Positions 3,122 through 47,673 of a stretch of 64,000 nucleotides of DNA are shown piece after piece. The number at the start of each line of letters is the position of its first letter. Within the stretch, counting starts at the first letter, position 1. A program made the position numbers and the translations under genes. The notes beneath the pieces were generated by a model that made no database searches, was not told the DNA's origin, and saw only the letters and a list, made by a program, of their open reading frames with translations. Source of the stretch: an uncultured Eubacteriales bacterium. GTDB taxonomy: Bacteria > Bacillota > Clostridia > Oscillospirales > CAG-272. The stretch spans positions 122,653 to 186,652 of the forward strand of contig CAKSDZ010000002.1 of the NCBI GenBank assembly GCA_934446365.1, given 5' to 3'.

Positions 3122-3163
3122 CCTTTCCGCATAAAAAGCGGAATATCCTTTCTTTTTATACTT

Positions 3164-3811
3164 TTATATAAATGATTTTATGATTTTGTATAAGTCTTCG
3201 GCATCCCCCGCCACATAGGCGGCGCCCGCTTTTTTGAGGACATCCTCGCCGCGGTACCCCCAAGAAACGCCGATGGGAAGCATTCCGGCGTTTTTCGCCG
3301 TCATCATATCGACGTCGGCATCGCCAATGAGCGTCGTCTCCTCCGGCTTCACATCAAAATTCTCAACAATCATAAAAGCCCGCGCCGGATTCGGCTTCAC
3401 CGGTACCTCCTTGACAGCCCCCCATATCGCATCAAAGGCACCCGGAAAAAGCGCTTCGGTCATCTCGCCGACATGCTCATGCTCCTTATTGGACAGTACA
3501 GCAAGCTTTATCCCCAACGCACGAAGCTTCGCCAGCAGCTCAGCAATACCGTCATATGCAGTCGTTTTATCAAAATAATGCTCGGCATAGGCGCTAAAAT
3601 AGGCTTCGGTCGCCTCATTCATGCGTACCTCATCAAAATCATCCGGCAAACACAGCCGAATAAAGCCTGCGTTATACACCGCATCAAGAACTTCCTTTTC
3701 CGTAATCGGCTCATATCCCAAACATGCGCGCATCAAGTTTACAGAAGTATGCCAATCCGGCAGCGTATTGGCCAACGTTCCGTCAAAATCAAAAATTGCC
3801 GCTTTTATCAT
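3164..3811 (-). CDS. HAD-superfamily hydrolase (phosphoglycolate phosphatase-like), paralog 1
   Basis: MIKAAIFDFDGTLANT (DxDGT motif) and GDADVDMMTAKNAG (motif IV). ATG at 3811 lies behind AAGGAG. Confidence 0.85.
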   Translation of the reverse strand: MIKAAIFDFDGTLANTLPDWHTSVNLMRACLGYEPITEKEVLDAVYNAGFIRLCLPDDFDEVRMNEATEAYFSAYAEHYFDKTTAYDGIAELLAKLRALGIKLAVLSNKEHEHVGEMTEALFPGAFDAIWGAVKEVPVKPNPARAFMIVENFDVKPEETTLIGDADVDMMTAKNAGMLPIGVSWGYRGEDVLKKAGAAYVAGDAEDLYKIIKSFI

Positions 3812-4063
3812 CAGCAATATCTCCTTATATGCGATTTCAGCTCCCTTTCAATATCTTCTCCGAAAACGGCACAATCCCTTTCAGCTAACGAAAACAATGT
3901 AAAAGCTTTTATATTTTCTGCTTAGCATCTGTTGGCCGCAATGTTTGAATACGGTACCAAGATTTATGTAGAAAACCATCATACTTTCATCCCATTATGG
4001 CAATAGCGCATTTTATATTTTCACCATTTCCATACATAAGGAGAATTTTCGGTTGCCATGCTT

Positions 4064-4717
4064 TTATATGATGGCTTTTGTAATCCTATACAATTCCTCC
4101 GAGTTAGCTGCCACATAGGCAGCGCCCGCTTTTTTGAGGACATCCTCGCTGCGGTACCCCCAAGAAACGCCGATGGGAAGCATTCCGGCGTTTTTCGCCG
4201 TCATCATATCGACGTCGGAATCCCCGACAAATGCCACCTCCTCCGGTTTCACGCCGAAATCCCGTGCGATCATAAAGGCACGGGCAGGGTCCGGCTTTAC
4301 CGGCACGCCTTCCACCGTTCCCCATATCGCGTCGAACGCGCCCGGAAAAAGTGTCTCGGTCATCTCGCCGACATGCTCGTTGTCCTTATTGGACATGACG
4401 GCAAGCCGGATGCCGTCCGCCCGAAGTCTTGCCAAAAGGCCGGCAACGCCCTCATACGGCGCCGTTTTGTCGAGATAATATTTGGCGTATGCGGCAAAAT
4501 AAGCCTCCACGGCCTCGTCCATACGCGCCTCGTCAAAATCGTCCGGCAGGCAAAGCCGGATAAACCGCACCGTCGCGTTGTTCACCGCGTGCAGGACTTC
4601 CTTTTCCGTAATCGGCTCATATCCGAAATGCGCGCGCATCAGGTTCAGCGAGGTACACAGGTCCGGCAGCGTATTGGCCAGCGTTCCGTCAAAATCAAAA
4701 ATTGCCGCTTTTATCAT
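4064..4717 (-). CDS. HAD-superfamily hydrolase, paralog 2 (tandem duplicate)
   Basis: MIKAAIFDFDGTLANTLPDL ... GDSDVDMMTAKNAGMLPIGVSWGYR. Collinear with the 3164-3811 product. ATG at 4717. Confidence 0.85.
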   Translation of the reverse strand: MIKAAIFDFDGTLANTLPDLCTSLNLMRAHFGYEPITEKEVLHAVNNATVRFIRLCLPDDFDEARMDEAVEAYFAAYAKYYLDKTAPYEGVAGLLARLRADGIRLAVMSNKDNEHVGEMTETLFPGAFDAIWGTVEGVPVKPDPARAFMIARDFGVKPEEVAFVGDSDVDMMTAKNAGMLPIGVSWGYRSEDVLKKAGAAYVAANSEELYRITKAII

Positions 4718-4913
4718 CGTTTCATTTTCCTTATATAATCGGTATTTCCGTATTATTGTACCAAACAACCGCATATTTGTCCATAGAAAATGAAAAAAAT
4801 ATTTGAAAAGTTCTCTTTTGGAGCGCATCCGAACATCGGATTCATTGACTTTATTGCCCGAATATGTTATATTGATAGATAAATTCGGCAGCAGCCGGTA
4901 CAGGGAGGCAGCA

Positions 4914-7869: not shown

Positions 7870-7962
7870 ACATGCCCTTGCACGGAATACCGTCCGCCAA
7901 AAGGCGGAACCGCTACGGAAAAGCGTCTTGCACAAAAACAAAATTCCCCGATCAATCGCGTG

Positions 7963-8073
7963 TTCCATAGGGATTTTTCAGACGACGTAAAAGACTAACA
8001 AAATTTTCTTTGTTAGTCTTTATTTTTGTTTTGCAAATCACACACCTTTGCTCGCAAAGCATAGTGTGCTACC
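7963..8073 (+). repeat. ~110-bp conserved module, copy 1 (homologous to 45812-45925 in inverse orientation)
   Basis: By-eye alignment: TTCCATAGGGATTT, a 13-bp-stem hairpin (7990-8021), TTTTTGTTTTGCAAATCACACAC, hairpin CTTTGC/GCAAAG, then CATAGTGTGCTAC. Confidence 0.7.
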
Positions 8074-8108
8074 CTTTGAACAAGTAGTTGTTAAAACTAC
8101 ATTTATCT

Positions 8109-9152
8109 TTAATCAGTATAGGTGAAAAGCTCCCAAGGGATATCGACTTGTTTTTTCTCGCTTAAAATTTCATCAATATGTAATAATAATGGAAAATCTT
8201 CCTTTTTAAGAGTACCCTTTTTAATATTGATTTTTATTGCCTTTGCAACTCTTACGGCAACCACTAAAGATTCAAGCGTAACGCCTTTTAATTCTGCTTT
8301 TGCTTGGTCAATATCAAGGCCTTTTCCAAGCAAAACGCCGACAAGTCTTGTTCTGCCACCGTAAACGGTAACGTATAAATCGCCAACTCCTACGCAAAGG
8401 TTATTCAACGAGAGTGCATTTTGGAATTGTAAAAGTTTATACATTTCTTTTGTCGCTTGACCAAAAACAGCCGCTTGAGAGTTAAAATGTAAGGTATTGT
8501 CTTTGAAATTCTTTTGGTTTAATCCAATCGTAAGTGCTATACCTAACGCATATCCGTTTTTAAGAGCAACAGCGCTTTCAATTCCTACGACGTCGGTCGT
8601 GATACTTATATGGTAATAATCCGTTTGCATTATTTCTTTTAAGTATTGCAATACTTTTATATCATCGCCACAAAAAGTAACTTCGGTTTGGTCGTGCACC
8701 ACCAATTCATAGCTTGTACAAGGCCCGCCGATTGCATTAAGCGAAAGAGATTTATTGATGGATTTTAGTTTCTCTTTCCAAAAGCTTGGATAAGTGAATA
8801 ATTTCCCGTCGGGTGTATCTATAAGCCCTTTTGTAACGGTAAGTACTACTGCGGTTTCGGGGATAACGGGCAAAACCTTATCTGCAAACCAATCTACACC
8901 AAAGCTGCTAACGCCGCCAATAACGACGTTTGCGCCAACCAACGCCTTTTCTAACTCTTCAATTTGAAAAAATTCTATTCCCTTTGGGAATGGGATATCA
9001 AATTTAGGATGTTTATTATTTTGTAAACATTCATCGATTATTTCTCTATCCAAGTGCGTCCCAACGATTCTTACTGTGTGTCCGTTTTCTCTTGCGGGAA
9101 ATGCAAGTGCCGACCCCATCATACCCGCGCCAACTATCGTTACAATTGCCAT
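8109..9152 (-). CDS. NAD(P)-dependent glycerol-3-phosphate dehydrogenase-family protein, in an AT-rich island
   Basis: MAIVTIVGAGMMGSALAF Rossmann start and GpsA-like length. Codon usage and GC are clearly unlike the flanking DNA. Confidence 0.7.
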   Translation of the reverse strand: MAIVTIVGAGMMGSALAFPARENGHTVRIVGTHLDREIIDECLQNNKHPKFDIPFPKGIEFFQIEELEKALVGANVVIGGVSSFGVDWFADKVLPVIPETAVVLTVTKGLIDTPDGKLFTYPSFWKEKLKSINKSLSLNAIGGPCTSYELVVHDQTEVTFCGDDIKVLQYLKEIMQTDYYHISITTDVVGIESAVALKNGYALGIALTIGLNQKNFKDNTLHFNSQAAVFGQATKEMYKLLQFQNALSLNNLCVGVGDLYVTVYGGRTRLVGVLLGKGLDIDQAKAELKGVTLESLVVAVRVAKAIKINIKKGTLKKEDFPLLLHIDEILSEKKQVDIPWELFTYTD

Positions 9153-43975: not shown

Positions 43976-45168
43976 AAAAATCACTTTCCCTCTTTCTGAC
44001 CGCCTGCCTCTGTATCGTCCTGCTCTGCGCCTGCACGGAACAGCCGTCACCGCCTCCGCCGGGGACGGAAAACGCGCCCATAACCGACGCCGACAGATCC
44101 GAGGAGAGCATGGCGCAGTCATCACAAAATACAGAAACGCCGCCGGCTGTCACCCAAGCCGATACCGAGACGGAAAGCGGTGAAAAAGCGCCGGATATCA
44201 TCTCCGGAGCCGAAATTTTGAGATTTCCCTATGCCGACGGCATTCTGTTTGAACAGCTCGGCGCGGCGGCGTCCTCGCAGGACACGTCCGTCATACGGAT
44301 CCGAACCGAAAAAGATTTCCGCGAGTTTTTGGAAGAAGCGGCAGCTTTCATTCAGAAAATGGGCGGATACGGGTATGATTTCGATGCGTCCCGCCTGTCG
44401 TCCGCATATGACGAAGCCTTTTTCGCGGAACGCTCGCTTCTCGTCTTTCAGCTCTCCGCGGAAAGCGGCTCCATCCGTTACCGCAATCCGAATATCTCCT
44501 ATGACAAAAGCACCGACACCATCGCGGTGACGGTAGAAAAATGCATTCCCGAGGCCGGCACCTGCGACATGGCCTCATGGCTCTTGCTTGTGCCTCTTGA
44601 AGCCGACATGGCTGAGGCGGAAACCGTCCGGCTTTCGGTGAGCGTGATAAGGGAGGGCACAGATATCTCCGAACCGACAAGCATACAAAGCGATGCGGAA
44701 GGCGTCTATATCACCCGCATTTCCTATGTCGATCATAAGGAAGTATTAAACAACATCCCTTATGAAACGATATCCGCCAATACCGGTACTGCATTTTCTC
44801 TGATGCGTTTTTCCCGCTGGGAAGAGTTTTCCGCATGGAAAGAGGAAAATCTCCTCCCACATGAAAGCGTGAAAGGATACGGGCAGGACGGTCAAGCGAC
44901 GACGGCTGCCGCGGTTTTCGACGAAGCTTTCTTTGAAGAAAACGCGCTTTTTGTCCTGCTTTGGAGTGAATCAAGCGGCTCTTATTCTCATGAGTTCCGG
45001 AGCGCTACATGCGACAAGGCCGGAGAGGTCACCGTCGTGGTGCAGACCACCCGTCCGCAGCTTCACACAGATGACATGGCCTCGTGGCTTCTGTTCCTGC
45101 CGATAAAACCGGAATATGCCGACACGGAATCGGTCAGCATTCTGATTTCGATTCAAGACACAGAATAA
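43972..45168 (+). CDS. Hypothetical lipoprotein with an internally duplicated ~110-aa domain
   Basis: MKKSLSLFLTACLCIVLLCAC lipobox. Two copies of the pattern DEAFF-E--L-V---SES-GS...DK...V-V....DMASWLL--P. Confidence 0.65.
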   Translation: MKKSLSLFLTACLCIVLLCACTEQPSPPPPGTENAPITDADRSEESMAQSSQNTETPPAVTQADTETESGEKAPDIISGAEILRFPYADGILFEQLGAAASSQDTSVIRIRTEKDFREFLEEAAAFIQKMGGYGYDFDASRLSSAYDEAFFAERSLLVFQLSAESGSIRYRNPNISYDKSTDTIAVTVEKCIPEAGTCDMASWLLLVPLEADMAEAETVRLSVSVIREGTDISEPTSIQSDAEGVYITRISYVDHKEVLNNIPYETISANTGTAFSLMRFSRWEEFSAWKEENLLPHESVKGYGQDGQATTAAAVFDEAFFEENALFVLLWSESSGSYSHEFRSATCDKAGEVTVVVQTTRPQLHTDDMASWLLFLPIKPEYADTESVSILISIQDTE

Positions 45169-45339
45169 CAAAAAAGAGAGCGTCTCCGCAGTTCCCATAG
45201 GGATTTAAGTTTAATAACGGCAAAACTTGCCTTTTCAAAAGTCGAGTTTTCTTTTACGCACGCAAAACTGCTTTAATATAATTTGTTTTTATGGTAAAAT
45301 AAACCCACCGATAAAAGGGAATTTATAGAATAGTAGGAT

Positions 45340-45780
45340 ATGAAGAAAATGAGTAATACCTTAAGAATCATTAAGAATGTGGAAAATATAAAAGAACATA
45401 ACAATGTTGCGTTAGAGTGTGATTTAATATGTGAATGCGGAAATAAATACTTTAAAATATATCATTCCGGAAAACAAACCAAAGGTATATTTGCCCCTTA
45501 TTTAGTTAAAAGCAATCATCAAATAGTTATTGAAGGAAAATGCACATGTTGTGAAAAGAGTATTGTAATTTTTGATAGCAGCCTTGACGGAACAAAAAAA
45601 TGCGAATTAAGTAAAACTCCTAAACAATTATTTAATATTTTAAACGATATTTACGCCTATAAAATTCATTTAATGTATAACTACTATGAAAACAATTTCA
45701 GAACAAACTTGTTTGAGGACTGTTTCATAGAAATATCCAATAGTAAATTCAAAAAGCCACGTCGCTTGTATGAAGGATGA
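45340..45780 (+). CDS. Hypothetical Cys-rich (CxxxCxC ... CxCC) 146-aa protein; cargo of the cassette
   Basis: MKKMSNTLRIIKNV...CDLICECGNKYFKIYHSGKQ...GKCTCCEKSIVIFD. AT-rich codon usage unlike the host genes. GGA-rich RBS (aatagtaggatATG). Confidence 0.55.
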   Translation: MKKMSNTLRIIKNVENIKEHNNVALECDLICECGNKYFKIYHSGKQTKGIFAPYLVKSNHQIVIEGKCTCCEKSIVIFDSSLDGTKKCELSKTPKQLFNILNDIYAYKIHLMYNYYENNFRTNLFEDCFIEISNSKFKKPRRLYEG

Positions 45781-45811
45781 TAAGAATATATTAGAAAAAC
45801 ACTTTCAAAAG

Positions 45812-45925
45812 TGTAGCACACTATACTTAACAGAGTTAAGTCGTGTGTTTTTGCAAAGCAAAAAGGAAAAGACTAACGAAAATTTTCGTTAGTCTTTTAT
45901 ACTATCTAAAAAATCCCTATGGGAA
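45812..45925 (-). repeat. ~110-bp conserved module, copy 2 (inverse orientation relative to 7963-8073)
   Basis: Contains the 32-nt perfect palindrome AAAAGACTAACGAAAATTTTCGTTAGTCTTTT (45867-45898), hairpin CTTAAC/GTTAAG, GTAGCACACTAT, and the terminal AAATCCCTATGGGAA. Confidence 0.7.
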
Positions 45926-45951
45926 ACGACCCTTCCACGCTCTCTTTTTTG

Positions 45952-47673
45952 TTAAATCTGGTATTTCGCAAGCTCGTTTTTCACAATTTCCGCAATCTTT
46001 TCCGCAGCTTCCGCAATCGGAAATTCGCCCTTCCACGATTTGTCGCGCAGGGAAACCTCGACAACACCGCGCTCGCAGGTTTTCGGCGACACGACGGCGC
46101 GCACCGGAATGCCGAACAAATCCGCATCCGCGAACATCGCGCCGGGACGGATATTGCGGTCGTCGTAAAGCACCTCGATTCCCGCCGACTGCAAGGCTTC
46201 ATACAGACGGTCCGCCGCCGCGCTCACGACTGCGTCGTCACAGCGGAGATTGCAGACCTCCACCTGCCACGGGGCGATGGACATCGGCCAAATGGGGCCG
46301 TAATCGTCGTGGCTTTCCTGGCAGATAGAAGCGCAAAGCCTTCCGATGCCGATGCCGTAGCAGCCCATAATCGGATTTTTCGCCTCTCCGTCCGCATCAA
46401 GATAGGTCATGCCCATCGATTTCGTATATTTGGTTCCGAGCTGGAAGATGTTCCCGACCTCGATTCCCTTTTGAATGGTAATCACCGGTTTTCCGCAGGA
46501 CGGGCATACCGCGCCCGCGTAAATCTTCGCAACATCGACATAGTTGACGTCCCCGATATCGCGCGCGATGTTGAAGCCCGTATAGTGATAATCCGTCTCG
46601 TTCGCGCCGCAGACGAGATTGCAGGCTCCGGCAAGAGAACGGTCCCAAACGACCGTAACCCCGTCGGGAAGTCCGAGCGCACCGATAAAGCCCGCGACGA
46701 TGCCGCTTTCCTCCGTGATGACCGCCGGATGGAATTCACCCCCGAGGAAATTGCGCAGCTTGGTCTCATTGACGTCGAGATCGCCGCGGATAAAGACGAT
46801 GACGTAGGAATCGTCCGCATTTTTCTGATAAACGACCGCCTTGCAAAGGCGTTTTTCGTCCGCATCGAGGAATTTTGCCAAATCATCGATGGTTTTTGCA
46901 CCGGGCGTATGGATTTTGGTGAGCGGCGCGTCCTCTGCCTGTCCGTTTTTCACGATGCATTCCGCCGCCTCCATATTCGCCTTATAGCCGCACTCCGGAC
47001 AAATGGCGAGCGTATCCTCTCCGATTTCGGAAAGCAGCATGAATTCATGCGACACACTGCCGCCCATCATGCCGGAATCCGATTTGACCGCGATGACGTT
47101 TTTTGCGCCGGCACGGCGGAAAATGCGCTCATACGCCTCGTAGCAGCGCTCATAATAGGCTTCCAGATCCTCCTGCGACGTGTGGAACGAATAGGCGTCC
47201 TTCATGGTAAATTCACGCACGCGAATCAGTCCCCCGCGTGCACGCGGTTCGTCGCGGAATTTCGTCTGAATCTGATAAATCATAAACGGAAAATCCGCAT
47301 AGGATTTCGCCGTATCGCGCGCGAGGTGGACGGCCGCCTCCTCGTGCGTCATGCCGAGCACCATGTTGTTGCCGCCTCTGTCCTTGAAGCGCGCCATCTC
47401 GCTGCCGATGCTCGTATACCGGCCTGACTGCTCCCACAGCGTCGCCGGCATCACCACGGGAAACAGCACCTCCTCGCCGTCGATGCGGTCCATCTCCTCA
47501 CGGATGATTTTTTCGATTTTGGACGTGATCCGTTTTGCCGGCGTAAACAGAGAATAAATCCCGTTTCCCACGTATTTCATATAGCCACCGCGCATCATGA
47601 GCGCATGACTTGCAATCACACAGTCTTTCGGCGCTTCCTTGAAGCGTTCGCCGAGCATTTTGGCAACTTTCAT
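45952..47673 (-). CDS. proS: Prolyl-tRNA synthetase
   Basis: HALMMRGGYMKYVGNGIYSLFTPAKRI...FRDEPRARGGLIRVREFTMKDAYSFH. Confidence 0.97.
   Translation of the reverse strand: MKVAKMLGERFKEAPKDCVIASHALMMRGGYMKYVGNGIYSLFTPAKRITSKIEKIIREEMDRIDGEEVLFPVVMPATLWEQSGRYTSIGSEMARFKDRGGNNMVLGMTHEEAAVHLARDTAKSYADFPFMIYQIQTKFRDEPRARGGLIRVREFTMKDAYSFHTSQEDLEAYYERCYEAYERIFRRAGAKNVIAVKSDSGMMGGSVSHEFMLLSEIGEDTLAICPECGYKANMEAAECIVKNGQAEDAPLTKIHTPGAKTIDDLAKFLDADEKRLCKAVVYQKNADDSYVIVFIRGDLDVNETKLRNFLGGEFHPAVITEESGIVAGFIGALGLPDGVTVVWDRSLAGACNLVCGANETDYHYTGFNIARDIGDVNYVDVAKIYAGAVCPSCGKPVITIQKGIEVGNIFQLGTKYTKSMGMTYLDADGEAKNPIMGCYGIGIGRLCASICQESHDDYGPIWPMSIAPWQVEVCNLRCDDAVVSAAADRLYEALQSAGIEVLYDDRNIRPGAMFADADLFGIPVRAVVSPKTCERGVVEVSLRDKSWKGEFPIAEAAEKIAEIVKNELAKYQI

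Follow-up and report, generated by a model that had tools for sequence, protein, structure and literature searches.

Cargo-bearing cassettes in the terminator hairpins of gut Clostridia: an apparently undescribed family with a putative pMV158-type transfer origin

IS1397 and ISKpn1 insert in the loops of repetitive extragenic palindromic (REP) units with a duplication of 3-4 bp, IS1630 of the IS30 family has terminator-like inverted repeats as its target and duplicates them, and class C group II introns home to intrinsic terminators, which they recognise as a DNA stem-loop; like these introns, IS200/IS605-type elements and integron cassettes are associated with hairpins or terminators. ISPpu9, of the IS110 family, inserts in REP sequences (bioRxiv 10.1101/2025.01.17.633520). 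Small elements that carry a passenger gene without a transposase have been defined as mobile insertion cassettes (MICs; PMC3129680), an example being MIC231 of the Bacillus cereus group. MTnSag1 and tISCpe8 of Firmicutes are 1.7-2.0 kb long, have 25-bp inverted repeats, carry one cargo gene and a sequence that acts as an origin of transfer (oriT), have no relaxase and depend on a conjugative element for mobilisation in trans (PMC5704250), and integrated elements with no relaxase and nothing but an oriT are now recognised as common (bioRxiv 10.64898/2026.01.13.699239; PMC5704250). Here we describe a cassette, el1, in a 64-kb stretch of DNA (the window, in which all coordinates are positions) from an uncultured Eubacteriales bacterium (contig CAKSDZ010000002.1, assembly GCA_934446365.1), together with the family to which it belongs. 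We consider it probable, with appreciable room for doubt, that these are MIC-like cassettes mobilised in trans, which target hairpin apexes, insulate themselves transcriptionally and can be mobilised by conjugation.

The cassette splits the bidirectional terminator common to two convergent genes, one encoding a lipoprotein and the other proS. A preliminary description, made from the sequence of the window alone, had proposed that a low-GC block was inserted in the loop of this terminator, and had named an uninterrupted terminator in related genomes as one way to check it. Such an empty site exists: in three relatives (L084, L085 and L086; L-numbers denote the 119 loci that were fetched) the lipoprotein stop codon, an intact terminator of 33-34 nt and the proS stop codon form the spacer TAA CAGAAAAAGAGAGCG TCTC CGCTCTCTTTTTCTG TTA. 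The lipoproteins of these relatives are 75% and 85% identical to that of the window. Their bidirectional terminator folds as DNA at -16.2 kcal/mol (z = -7.35), and judged by this empty site the original stem was AGAGAGCG/CGCTCTCT with the loop TCTC. The filled site in the window reads ...GAGAGCG TCTC CGC / AGTTCCCATAGGG ... CCCTATGGGAAACGACCCTTCCA / CGC TCTCTTTTTT, where the slashes mark the ends of the insertion. The comparison shows that el1 is foreign DNA inserted at the apex of the lipoprotein/proS terminator, with both arms left intact alongside.

The simplest reading of the junctions would make el1 a 748-bp insertion (45190-45937, plus strand) at the junction of loop and 3' arm, with a 3-bp duplication, CGC. 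Because the loop of the relatives' empty site is TCTC, T45183 is taken as a loop base and A45937 is probably the final base of the element. The extent of 734 bp first given for the block holds for the span between the 15-bp repeats, whereas the whole element measures about 748 bp. Those repeats were correctly described as perfect: TTCCCATAGGGATTT occurs only twice in the window, as an inverted pair 704 bp apart. The outer host inverted repeat, at first put at 14 bp, is perfect over 18 nt (45166-45183 and 45937-45954) and includes both stop codons. The GC content of el1 is 0.25-0.31 against about 0.5-0.6 in the surrounding host DNA, its only convincing open reading frame (ORF) is the 146-codon gene noted from the start, and an ORF and domain search of the block returned no transposase or integrase. 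The features of el1, and of a second copy described below, are listed in Table 1. With no more than one mismatch el1 recurs in four further assemblies of the same species; since all four loci inspected carry it, it is fixed or nearly fixed there. Metagenome assemblies commonly contain lipoprotein and ProS proteins identical to those of the window, which are indexed in about 350-380 blocks.

Table 1. Coordinates of the features of el1, its host site and the second copy el2
Feature	Position	Strand	Remarks
Host left side	45166-45186	.	Lipoprotein stop TAA 45166-68; A-run and left terminator arm AAAAAAGAGAGCG 45170-45182; loop TCTC 45183-45186
CGC, left copy of 3-bp direct duplication	45187-45189	.	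First three bases of the 3' arm in the empty site
Left terminal inverted repeat TTCCCATAGGGATTT	45192-45206	+	Holds small palindrome TCCC-ATA-GGGA
T1, inward terminator, degenerate copy (GGCAAAACTTGCC TTTT ... AAGTCGAGTTTTCTTTT)	45219-45256	+	Family alignment
Predicted promoter region	45253-45300	+	TTTACG-18-TATAAT 45253-45282; TTAATA-16-TG-TAAAAT 45273-45300 (consensus scan)
Cargo gene ORF146	45340-45780	+	146 aa
MOBV1 (pMV158)-type oriT-like element	45803-45847	-	Alignment to published pMV158 oriT; apex covariation
Hairpin B, TTTTTGC AAA GCAAAAA	45848-45864	+	Helix 3: 84.5% of cells paired, 2 pairs changed on both sides
T2, perfect 32-nt palindrome AAAAGACTAACGAAAATTTTCGTTAGTCTTTT, bidirectional terminator	45867-45898	.	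Repeat search, terminator scan, folding
Right terminal inverted repeat (AAATCCCTATGGGAA on + strand)	45911-45925	-	Inverted-repeat search
Right-end extension ACGACCCTTCCA	45926-45937	+	Matches the family 'ACGCCCT..' extension outside the 15-bp repeat
Host right side	45938-45954	.	CGC right duplication copy 45938-40; 3' arm and T-run CGCTCTCTTTTTT 45938-45950; proS stop (TTA on +) 45952-54
el2, second family member	7962-~9450	-	Right inverted repeat 7962-7976; T2 ~7988-8023; oriT-like hairpin ~8035-8075; cargo 8109-9152; promoter region

Searches for the ends and the 3' module, which had been suggested at the outset, revealed a family. When each GTDB species was represented by a single genome, the pattern TAAAAGAC-N14-26-GTCTTT-N36-54-GTGTGCTAC matched 68 loci, about 62 of them true and six chance matches, and a metagenome collection contributed 33 more, 29 of them true; the pattern demanded GTGTGCTAC, and the family counts cover copies with that sequence. 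About 55 true hits among the species genomes have the ends together with the 3' module, and some 85 copies were recovered in all, a second one in the window among them. Records with true matches are titled Christensenellaceae, Clostridia, Oscillospiraceae or Eubacteriales and include metagenome-assembled genomes (MAGs) from human, ruminant and other guts. One metagenome contig holds three copies. Contig ends frequently fall within the 3' module, as a repeat would lead one to expect. IMG/VR viral contigs lack the module pattern, and a phage or plasmid origin was rejected, as el1 has no BLAST match in 50,697 phage or 72,556 plasmid records. No Rfam family at threshold and no tRNA lies in the window, and a known RNA family or a tRNA target was set aside on these grounds. 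Full-text literature searches returned no description of terminator-targeting cassettes or of this family, which is apparently undescribed, large and widespread in gut and rumen Clostridia.

Members are 0.4-1.9 kb in size and share one order of parts: left end, T1, promoter and 5' untranslated region (5'UTR) with a ribosome-binding site, cargo ORF, hairpin A, hairpin B, T2, and right inverted repeat with its extension; in many copies a linker of about 55 nt follows the cargo ORF, ahead of hairpin A. The left end consists of an extension of 5-9 nt and YYCYCWTAGGGATTT. Extensions read ..CGCTC, TGCTC or GGGCGT on the left and GAGCGG.. or ACGCCCT.. on the right, and the family comparison shows the right-end extension of el1 travelling with the element to different sites. 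In 27 complete members the left end keeps the core TAGGGATTT, and family-wide the inverted repeats have a conserved 9-bp core. T1 has the family form AAAACTCGACTTTTC..AAGTCGAGTTTTCTTTT, with a consensus hairpin, AAAACTCGACTTTTCGCAAGTCGAGTTTTCTTTT, that folds at -11.5 kcal/mol (z = -6.07), and alignment points to a conserved promoter, TTGAAT-17-TGnTATAAT, with which the second of the two predicted el1 promoters aligns. That the 3' module is structured, as first proposed, is borne out by 58 members, in which 92.9% of cells pair against 39-51% in slid controls. T2 (in el1, -12.4 kcal/mol, z = -6.2, and terminator-like in the scan) has the stem AAGACTAACGAA..TTCGTTAGTCTT, with 11 of 13 pairs identical in 57-58 of the 58 sequences and almost no covariation. 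Such conservation exceeds what a terminator would need, and we speculate that the stem may serve as a protein site or a single-strand origin. In some elements a 5'UTR segment, CGATAAATAAGAATTT, and a 3' linker, AAATTCCAATTTATCG, form an imperfect inverted repeat around the cargo (for example L023:783-798 and ~1414-1429), of which el1 has only the 5' copy; per element this pairing is no better than in shuffled controls, and an inner inverted repeat bracketing the cargo was rejected.

The second copy, el2, was found in the window itself through a relaxed search with the 15-mer, which returned GTTCCATAGGGATTT. Its 3' module is 81% identical to that of el1, in inverted orientation, and the changes between the two hairpins are compensatory (CTTAAC/GTTAAG against CTTTGC/GCAAAG). 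The cargo is a 347-aa ORF resembling NAD-dependent glycerol-3-phosphate dehydrogenase; this gene and ORF146 are the only clearly low-GC ORFs of the window, and there is no mobility enzyme among them. As a different gene rides on the same module and ends, these form a chassis that can be reused, and the gene is cargo that can be exchanged. No 5' inverted repeat of el2 is recognisable, the copy stands at the same site in relatives that are ~92% identical (L018, DBFVEH010000026.1, Eubacteriales bacterium MAG4602; and L111), and it is probably an older insertion.

Across the family, at least 35 unrelated clusters are represented among the ORFs that directly precede the 3' module, and some elements have two cargo ORFs. 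Pfam searches with 30 cargo representatives identified enzymes (nucleotidyltransferase, HAD phosphatase, GrpB, GDSL lipase, NUDIX, cyclase, a serine dehydratase fused to an HTH domain, nitroreductase, trypsin-like protease, GNAT acetyltransferase, hexapeptide acetyltransferase, LCM methyltransferase, esterase and G3P dehydrogenase), nucleic-acid-related proteins (a NERD nuclease with topoisomerase zinc ribbon, an RNase_T exonuclease with BRCT, an HTH regulator and TfoX_N) and others (Ltp lipoprotein, DUF3885, DUF3784 and zinc ribbons), while many proteins had no match. ORF146 itself has homologues in 27 protein clusters, with 23 invariant columns that include C31, C33, C68 and C71 and with CxC...CxxC and MYNY motifs. 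Its AlphaFold model is mostly beta (pLDDT 78), and it has no match in Pfam, PADLOC or PHROGs and no fold match in the PDB. A homologue that is 89% identical and has the same 3' module adjoins a tRNA and tilS in another organism (L007, L063); remoter homologues lie in accessory regions that resemble integrative mobilisable or conjugative elements (L001, L003). Downstream of rpsI in one of these regions (L003:640-3400), a predicted promoter of the family type (ACGCACGCAAAA..TTTACA..TGTGATATAAT) precedes an array of five small ORFs, including a homologue of ORF146 (78% identical) and a cyclase that cassette L023 carries as cargo. Linkers of the AAATTCCAATT type join the ORFs of the array; they also stand just upstream of the oriT-like module in many cassettes and after a gene in L001. 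The array may be a source or a sink of cargo genes.

Among elements that share a cargo, identity is 97.5-99.9%, yet the flanks are no more alike than background (for example L037/L038 and the 753-bp element at L097/L105/L109). We examined their targets by taking the best complementarity between the left and right flanks of each complete element. In 22 of 27 cases the element stands between the arms of a palindrome composed of an A-run, a GC stem and a T-run, with spacers about equal and with stems of unrelated sequence (for example AAAAAGACAAGG..CCTTGTCTTTTT, AAAACCGCCGACG..CGTCGGCGGTTTT and AAAAACGGCAAAGAATA..TATTCTTTGCCGTTTTT); the metagenome set adds L094, L097 and L109 as insertions at palindrome apexes. 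Counted as independent, 24 insertions stand at the apexes of different host terminator palindromes. A T-run lies within 40 nt in 71 of 80 distinct right flanks (89%), compared with 22% of random 40-mers from the same loci. One cassette, with a HAD phosphatase as cargo, is nested at the centre of the T2 palindrome of another (L079:3843-4940, AAAGAGTAGCAAAA / TTTTGCTACTCTTT), whose own cargo resembles cytidine or blasticidin deaminase. Since the targeted terminators share no sequence, the target would be recognised by shape and not by sequence, and as judged from the flanks it is the apex of an intrinsic-terminator hairpin. The preliminary proposal of a non-autonomous cargo cassette that targets terminator hairpins finds support in the empty site, the other copies and these apex insertions.

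The direct repeats that flank the elements are TTA, TAA, AAA, ATA, AAT, TTAC and others, and 19 of 21 elements have, at near-symmetric positions, a repeat of 3 bp or more, as opposed to 13.4 +/- 2.1 for mismatched pairs of left and right flanks. At L013, a 548-bp element in minus-strand orientation, the 12-bp left arm and loop, GCGCAATCAAAA, stands as a direct duplicate on either side, a pattern reminiscent of insertion sequences that duplicate an entire inverted repeat, whereas repeats elsewhere in the family are 2-4 bp long. Two models of the junctions were rejected: site-specific recombination between two palindromic att sites (attB TTCCCATATGGGAA), as the empty site has no such sequence, and a TA-duplicating model of the IS630/mariner kind, as several junctions, that of el1 included, lack TA.

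Further contigs bear on the lipoprotein/proS site. In another lineage, whose lipoprotein is 85% identical, three of them (L081:4201-4248, L082:3654-3701 and L083:1336-1404) have the same left arm, GAGAGCGT, followed by an unrelated sequence, TCCTGAACTGCCCCAAATTGTGCGGACAGTAC...AGTCCTAAGGTAGAA, at which all three stop, possibly another repeat that inserted independently at this apex. L091:1-1165 is 98.4% identical to window 44992-45925, that is, to the lipoprotein 3' end and the whole of el1. Past the right inverted repeat its flank is not that of the window (CTGCTTATCGGTTTCTTTTTTT...), and the final ~30 nt of the element resemble another family member, as would follow from either cassette-cassette recombination or chimeric assembly at the repeated 3' module. 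As a recombinant or chimeric contig between family members it was rejected as a second junction variant and is uninformative on the ends.

The structured 3' module appears to be a transfer origin of the pMV158 type (MOBV1). On the antisense strand the family form of hairpin A with its flanks is CACAC-G-ACTTTGC-TTG-CAAAGT-ATA-GTGTG/CTACACTTT, the slash marking the predicted nick. In el1 the oriT-like sequence, CACACGACTTAACTCTGTTAAGTATAGTGTGCTACACTTT, runs from 45847 to 45803 as CACAC G ACTTAAC TCT GTTAAGT ATA GTGTG / CTACACTTT, with the nick predicted between the complements of 45817 and 45816. The published pMV158 oriT is GCACACACTTTATGAATATAAAGTATAGTGTG/TTATACTTTA, the minimal MobM substrate being the hairpin of inverted repeat 1 (IR1) plus 8 nt, ACTTTATGAATATAAAGTATAGTGTG/ (PMC3105389), and MobM contacts AAGtaTAGTGTG beside the nick (PMC5863519). 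The family consensus, CACACGACTTTGC..GCAAAGTATAGTGTG/CTACACTTT, aligns with CACACACTTTATGAATATAAAGTATAGTGTG/TTATACTTT of pMV158, with 13 contiguous bases up to the nick, AAAGTATAGTGTG, identical. The module has the IR1/IR3 hairpin, then the 8 nt ATAGTGTG that end at the predicted nick, and IR2 across it; common to both origins are the outer CACAC/GTGTG stem (IR3), a 6-7-bp inner stem ACTTTnn/nnAAAGT (IR1) and nTAnACTTT after the nick (IR2). The family differs from pMV158 in a C instead of a T after the nick, an extra G between outer and inner stems and an apex that is different and covaries. Variation among the 58 members is confined to two apical pairs of IR1, where UA has become AU in 13-14 sequences and GC has become CG, AU or UA in 24, a pattern that should fit an oriT recognised by a protein. 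The setting differs too, the family's oriT lying in a chromosomal cassette with no adjacent relaxase gene and the pMV158 type in a rolling-circle plasmid or an integrative mobilisable element. MOBV1 elements are abundant in gut Clostridia (PMC12084326).

We propose that an enzyme encoded elsewhere, most likely a DDE-type transposase, would bind the inverted repeats of about 22-25 bp and insert the cassette with cuts staggered by 2-4 bp, choosing its target by geometry, whether as a hairpin, a cruciform or the apex of a palindrome. T1 would block read-through from the upstream host gene, and T2 would end the cargo transcript as well as read-through from the convergent gene; together they would replace the host terminator that the insertion destroys, so that both neighbouring genes would keep a terminator, the insertion would be close to neutral and terminator tips would be harmless landing sites. 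The cargo would be expressed from its own promoter. Finally, the oriT would open the cassette to transfer between cells, after excision or with neighbouring DNA, by a resident MOBV-type relaxase acting with a helper conjugative element, which would explain the spread across families of Clostridia.

Several points weigh against this interpretation. Neither the 119 loci nor the window nor the plasmid, phage and viral collections yielded a cognate transposase or an autonomous element with the same ends, and the inverted repeats and short duplications are the sole grounds for naming a DDE enzyme as the most likely one. A real empty site proves the duplication for el1 only, the statistic on duplications is just ~2.6 sd above its AT-rich null, and the junctions of young copies (L097, L105, L109 and L041) fit a 2-3-bp TT(T) duplication or none. 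As the family's left extension (CGCTC-like) resembles the host arm (CGCTC..), an alternative parse shifts the left boundary of el1 by up to 5 nt. Six elements (L021, L033, L054, L067, L078 and L105) lie in weak or unrecognisable palindromes, and the T1 of el1 is a degenerate copy that folds weakly (-5.2 kcal/mol, z = -1.3). As for the transfer origin, it is predicted from sequence; its nick dinucleotide is not the expected G/T but G/C (GTGTG/CTAC) in all copies found by the pattern that requires GTGTGCTAC, and a search of all fetched DNA with a regular expression for MOBV motif III (HxDE..PHxH) gave no relaxase nearby.

These last points bear on one alternative, which we consider less probable but worth serious attention: the 3' hairpins would be no more than an mRNA 3'UTR, a stabiliser and terminator derived from an ancestral mobilisable plasmid or integrative mobilisable element, with a vestigial oriT, and the cassettes would spread by transposition and hitch-hiking alone, not through a relaxase. 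Besides the want of a relaxase motif in the window or any locus and the departure from the G/T of pMV158, it accommodates the sense-strand G-U pairs that 15 sequences have at the foot of T2 and 2 have in hairpin A, which are compatible with RNA folding, and the homologues of cargo genes in element-like arrays without the module (L001, L003). It accounts poorly for the retention of the MobM contact site AAGtaTAGTGTG, the CACAC/GTGTG stem and the post-nick ACTTT in almost all 58 members, and a generic stabilising hairpin would not be expected to covary only at its apex, as an oriT recognised by a protein does. The family moreover spans MAGs of several different families.

The missing transposase invites a second alternative, the main rival of the preferred model, in which integration would take place without a DDE enzyme. 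No transposase, recombinase or relaxase is found among the ORFs inside 27 + 7 complete elements or upstream of 90 modules; where the left end was not found, GC profiles show short low-GC islands only and no autonomous master element. No autonomous copy having emerged from the search for an enzyme flanked by the same ends, the earlier term non-autonomous stands. A cassette, delivered or excised in single-stranded form and with its paired ends forming a long hairpin, might be joined into extruded terminator hairpins by a structure-recognising enzyme: a relaxase/Pre-type HUH/His nuclease, a tyrosine recombinase like integron integrases or Xer, or another, in a system analogous to integrons. This we judge unlikely, though not negligible. 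Every cassette has the oriT of a relaxase family first described as 'plasmid recombination enzymes', the targets are alike in structure and not in sequence, each end contains a small palindrome, and the joined ends would form a palindrome of ~48 bp; the T2 stem is invariant beyond the needs of a terminator, the cargo resembles that of integron cassettes in diversity and single-gene size, and a transposase was found in none of the loci searched. Against it, the boundaries of the element are inverted repeats and not the predicted nick, and variable short duplications (CGC, TTA, TAA, AAA and others) are the signature of staggered cuts, whereas strand transfer by HUH enzymes gives no duplication and recombinases need a shared core. 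There are also no attC-like R/L boxes and no integrase nearby. The broader proposal, that the cassettes are the mobile units of an unrecognised system parallel to integrons, in which a standard 'expression vector' chassis would accept arbitrary ORFs, pass between cells as single-stranded DNA processed by a relaxase at the MOBV-type oriT and be inserted into terminator tips by a structure-specific enzyme (possibly the relaxase/Pre itself or a partner), is held with the same low expectation.

The preferred reading, a trans-mobilised MIC-like cassette, is best judged against the described systems. Like MICs and miniature inverted-repeat transposable elements, the cassettes have terminal inverted repeats, a short duplication, passenger gene(s) and no transposase, with mobilisation presumed to occur in trans through a related insertion sequence (PMC3129680); for el1 the duplication is seen against an empty site, and copies occur at different sites. 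Unlike MICs, they have no known parent insertion sequence, and no autonomous one with the same ends was found; their chassis comprises a promoter, a 5'UTR, two terminators and an oriT-like module, they carry at least 35 kinds of cargo gene, and they insert at hairpin apexes. With MTnSag1 and tISCpe8 they share small size, inverted repeats, a single cargo gene, an oriT-like sequence and the lack of a relaxase. Those elements encode a DDE transposase of the IS1595 family, make 8-bp duplications, prefer AT-rich DNA and have an oriT that is considered fortuitous (PMC5704250), whereas the cassettes have no transposase, 2-4-bp duplications, terminator apexes as targets and a well-conserved MOBV1-type oriT-like sequence.

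Like iOriTs and relaxase-less integrative mobilisable elements, the cassettes are integrated, have only an oriT-like sequence and would depend on helpers (bioRxiv 10.64898/2026.01.13.699239; PMC5704250). Compared by the cited descriptions, iOriTs are genomic islands of nosocomial species (bioRxiv 10.64898/2026.01.13.699239) and relaxase-less mobile islands measure 18-33 kb and have a tyrosine integrase (PMC5704250), whereas the cassettes measure 0.4-1.9 kb, lie in terminators and have an oriT-like sequence without an integrase, and their ends are inverted repeats instead of direct att repeats. In common with IS1397/ISKpn1, IS1630 and ISPpu9 they insert at the loop or centre of extragenic palindromes, with a duplication as short as that of IS1397/ISKpn1, but these insertion sequences are autonomous and either use one repeat family or duplicate the whole palindrome, while the cassettes are non-autonomous, bear cargo and enter unrelated terminators. 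By the sum of its traits we class the cassette as a cargo-bearing non-autonomous transposon combined with an oriT-only hitcher, and its preference for terminator tips is unusual.

That the family belongs to a known hairpin-associated class seems very improbable, although the ends of the elements do contain small hairpins. The cassettes have genuine terminal inverted repeats and a target duplication, both of which are missing from IS200/IS605 elements, and their flanking bases vary, whereas IS200/IS605-type elements have subterminal hairpins and insert 3' of a fixed tetra- or pentanucleotide. Class C group II introns are ribozyme retroelements that insert after the T-run; the cassettes stand within the hairpin, have no ribozyme and no reverse transcriptase, and no Rfam family matches in the window. 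Integron cassettes offer more likenesses, being a large pool of small, mostly single-gene units of diverse and often unknown functions, with the enzyme elsewhere and a structured site after the ORF. The cassettes described here, however, have no attC with R''/L''/L'/R' boxes (GTTRRRY core) and no intI/attI platform; their 3' module has a different conserved architecture, no integrase occurs in cargo or flanks, and they sit singly in terminators with their own promoter and terminators. Equally improbable is a block that is not mobile at all, being an old, vertically inherited small gene of unusual composition or having the flanking palindrome as part of itself: although all four examined assemblies of the species carry el1, the same terminator is uninterrupted in relatives, a tRNA/tilS locus of another organism has an 89%-identical ORF together with the 3' module, and the same elements occur in different terminators.

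If the preferred reading is confirmed, uncultured gut anaerobes exchange single genes on a very small cassette that insulates itself and brings a promoter, terminators and a conjugative transfer origin; its mobile cargo includes hydrolases, nucleotidyl- and acetyltransferases, nucleases, lipoproteins and numerous unknowns. Intrinsic terminators number thousands in a gene-dense genome, and their tips, where insertion costs little, would be a possible generic target recognised by shape. Were the cassettes instead to prove parallel to integrons, they would represent a new integration mechanism and a natural, generic principle of 'safe-harbour' targeting. On a practical level, the family could guide the design of safe-harbour insertion vectors for genetically intractable Clostridia, serve as a marker of horizontal transfer in MAGs and explain contig breaks, and it makes it possible to ask in concrete terms how hairpin apexes are targeted and by which enzyme.

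Elsewhere in the window, two segments of ~660 bp that lie ~900 bp apart (3158-3812 and 4058-4736) are each ~75% similar to the other's counterpart in L111, which suggests that the segments are internal paralogous repeats. Identical 15-mers, TTCCCATCGGCGTTT, stand within them at 3265 and 4165.

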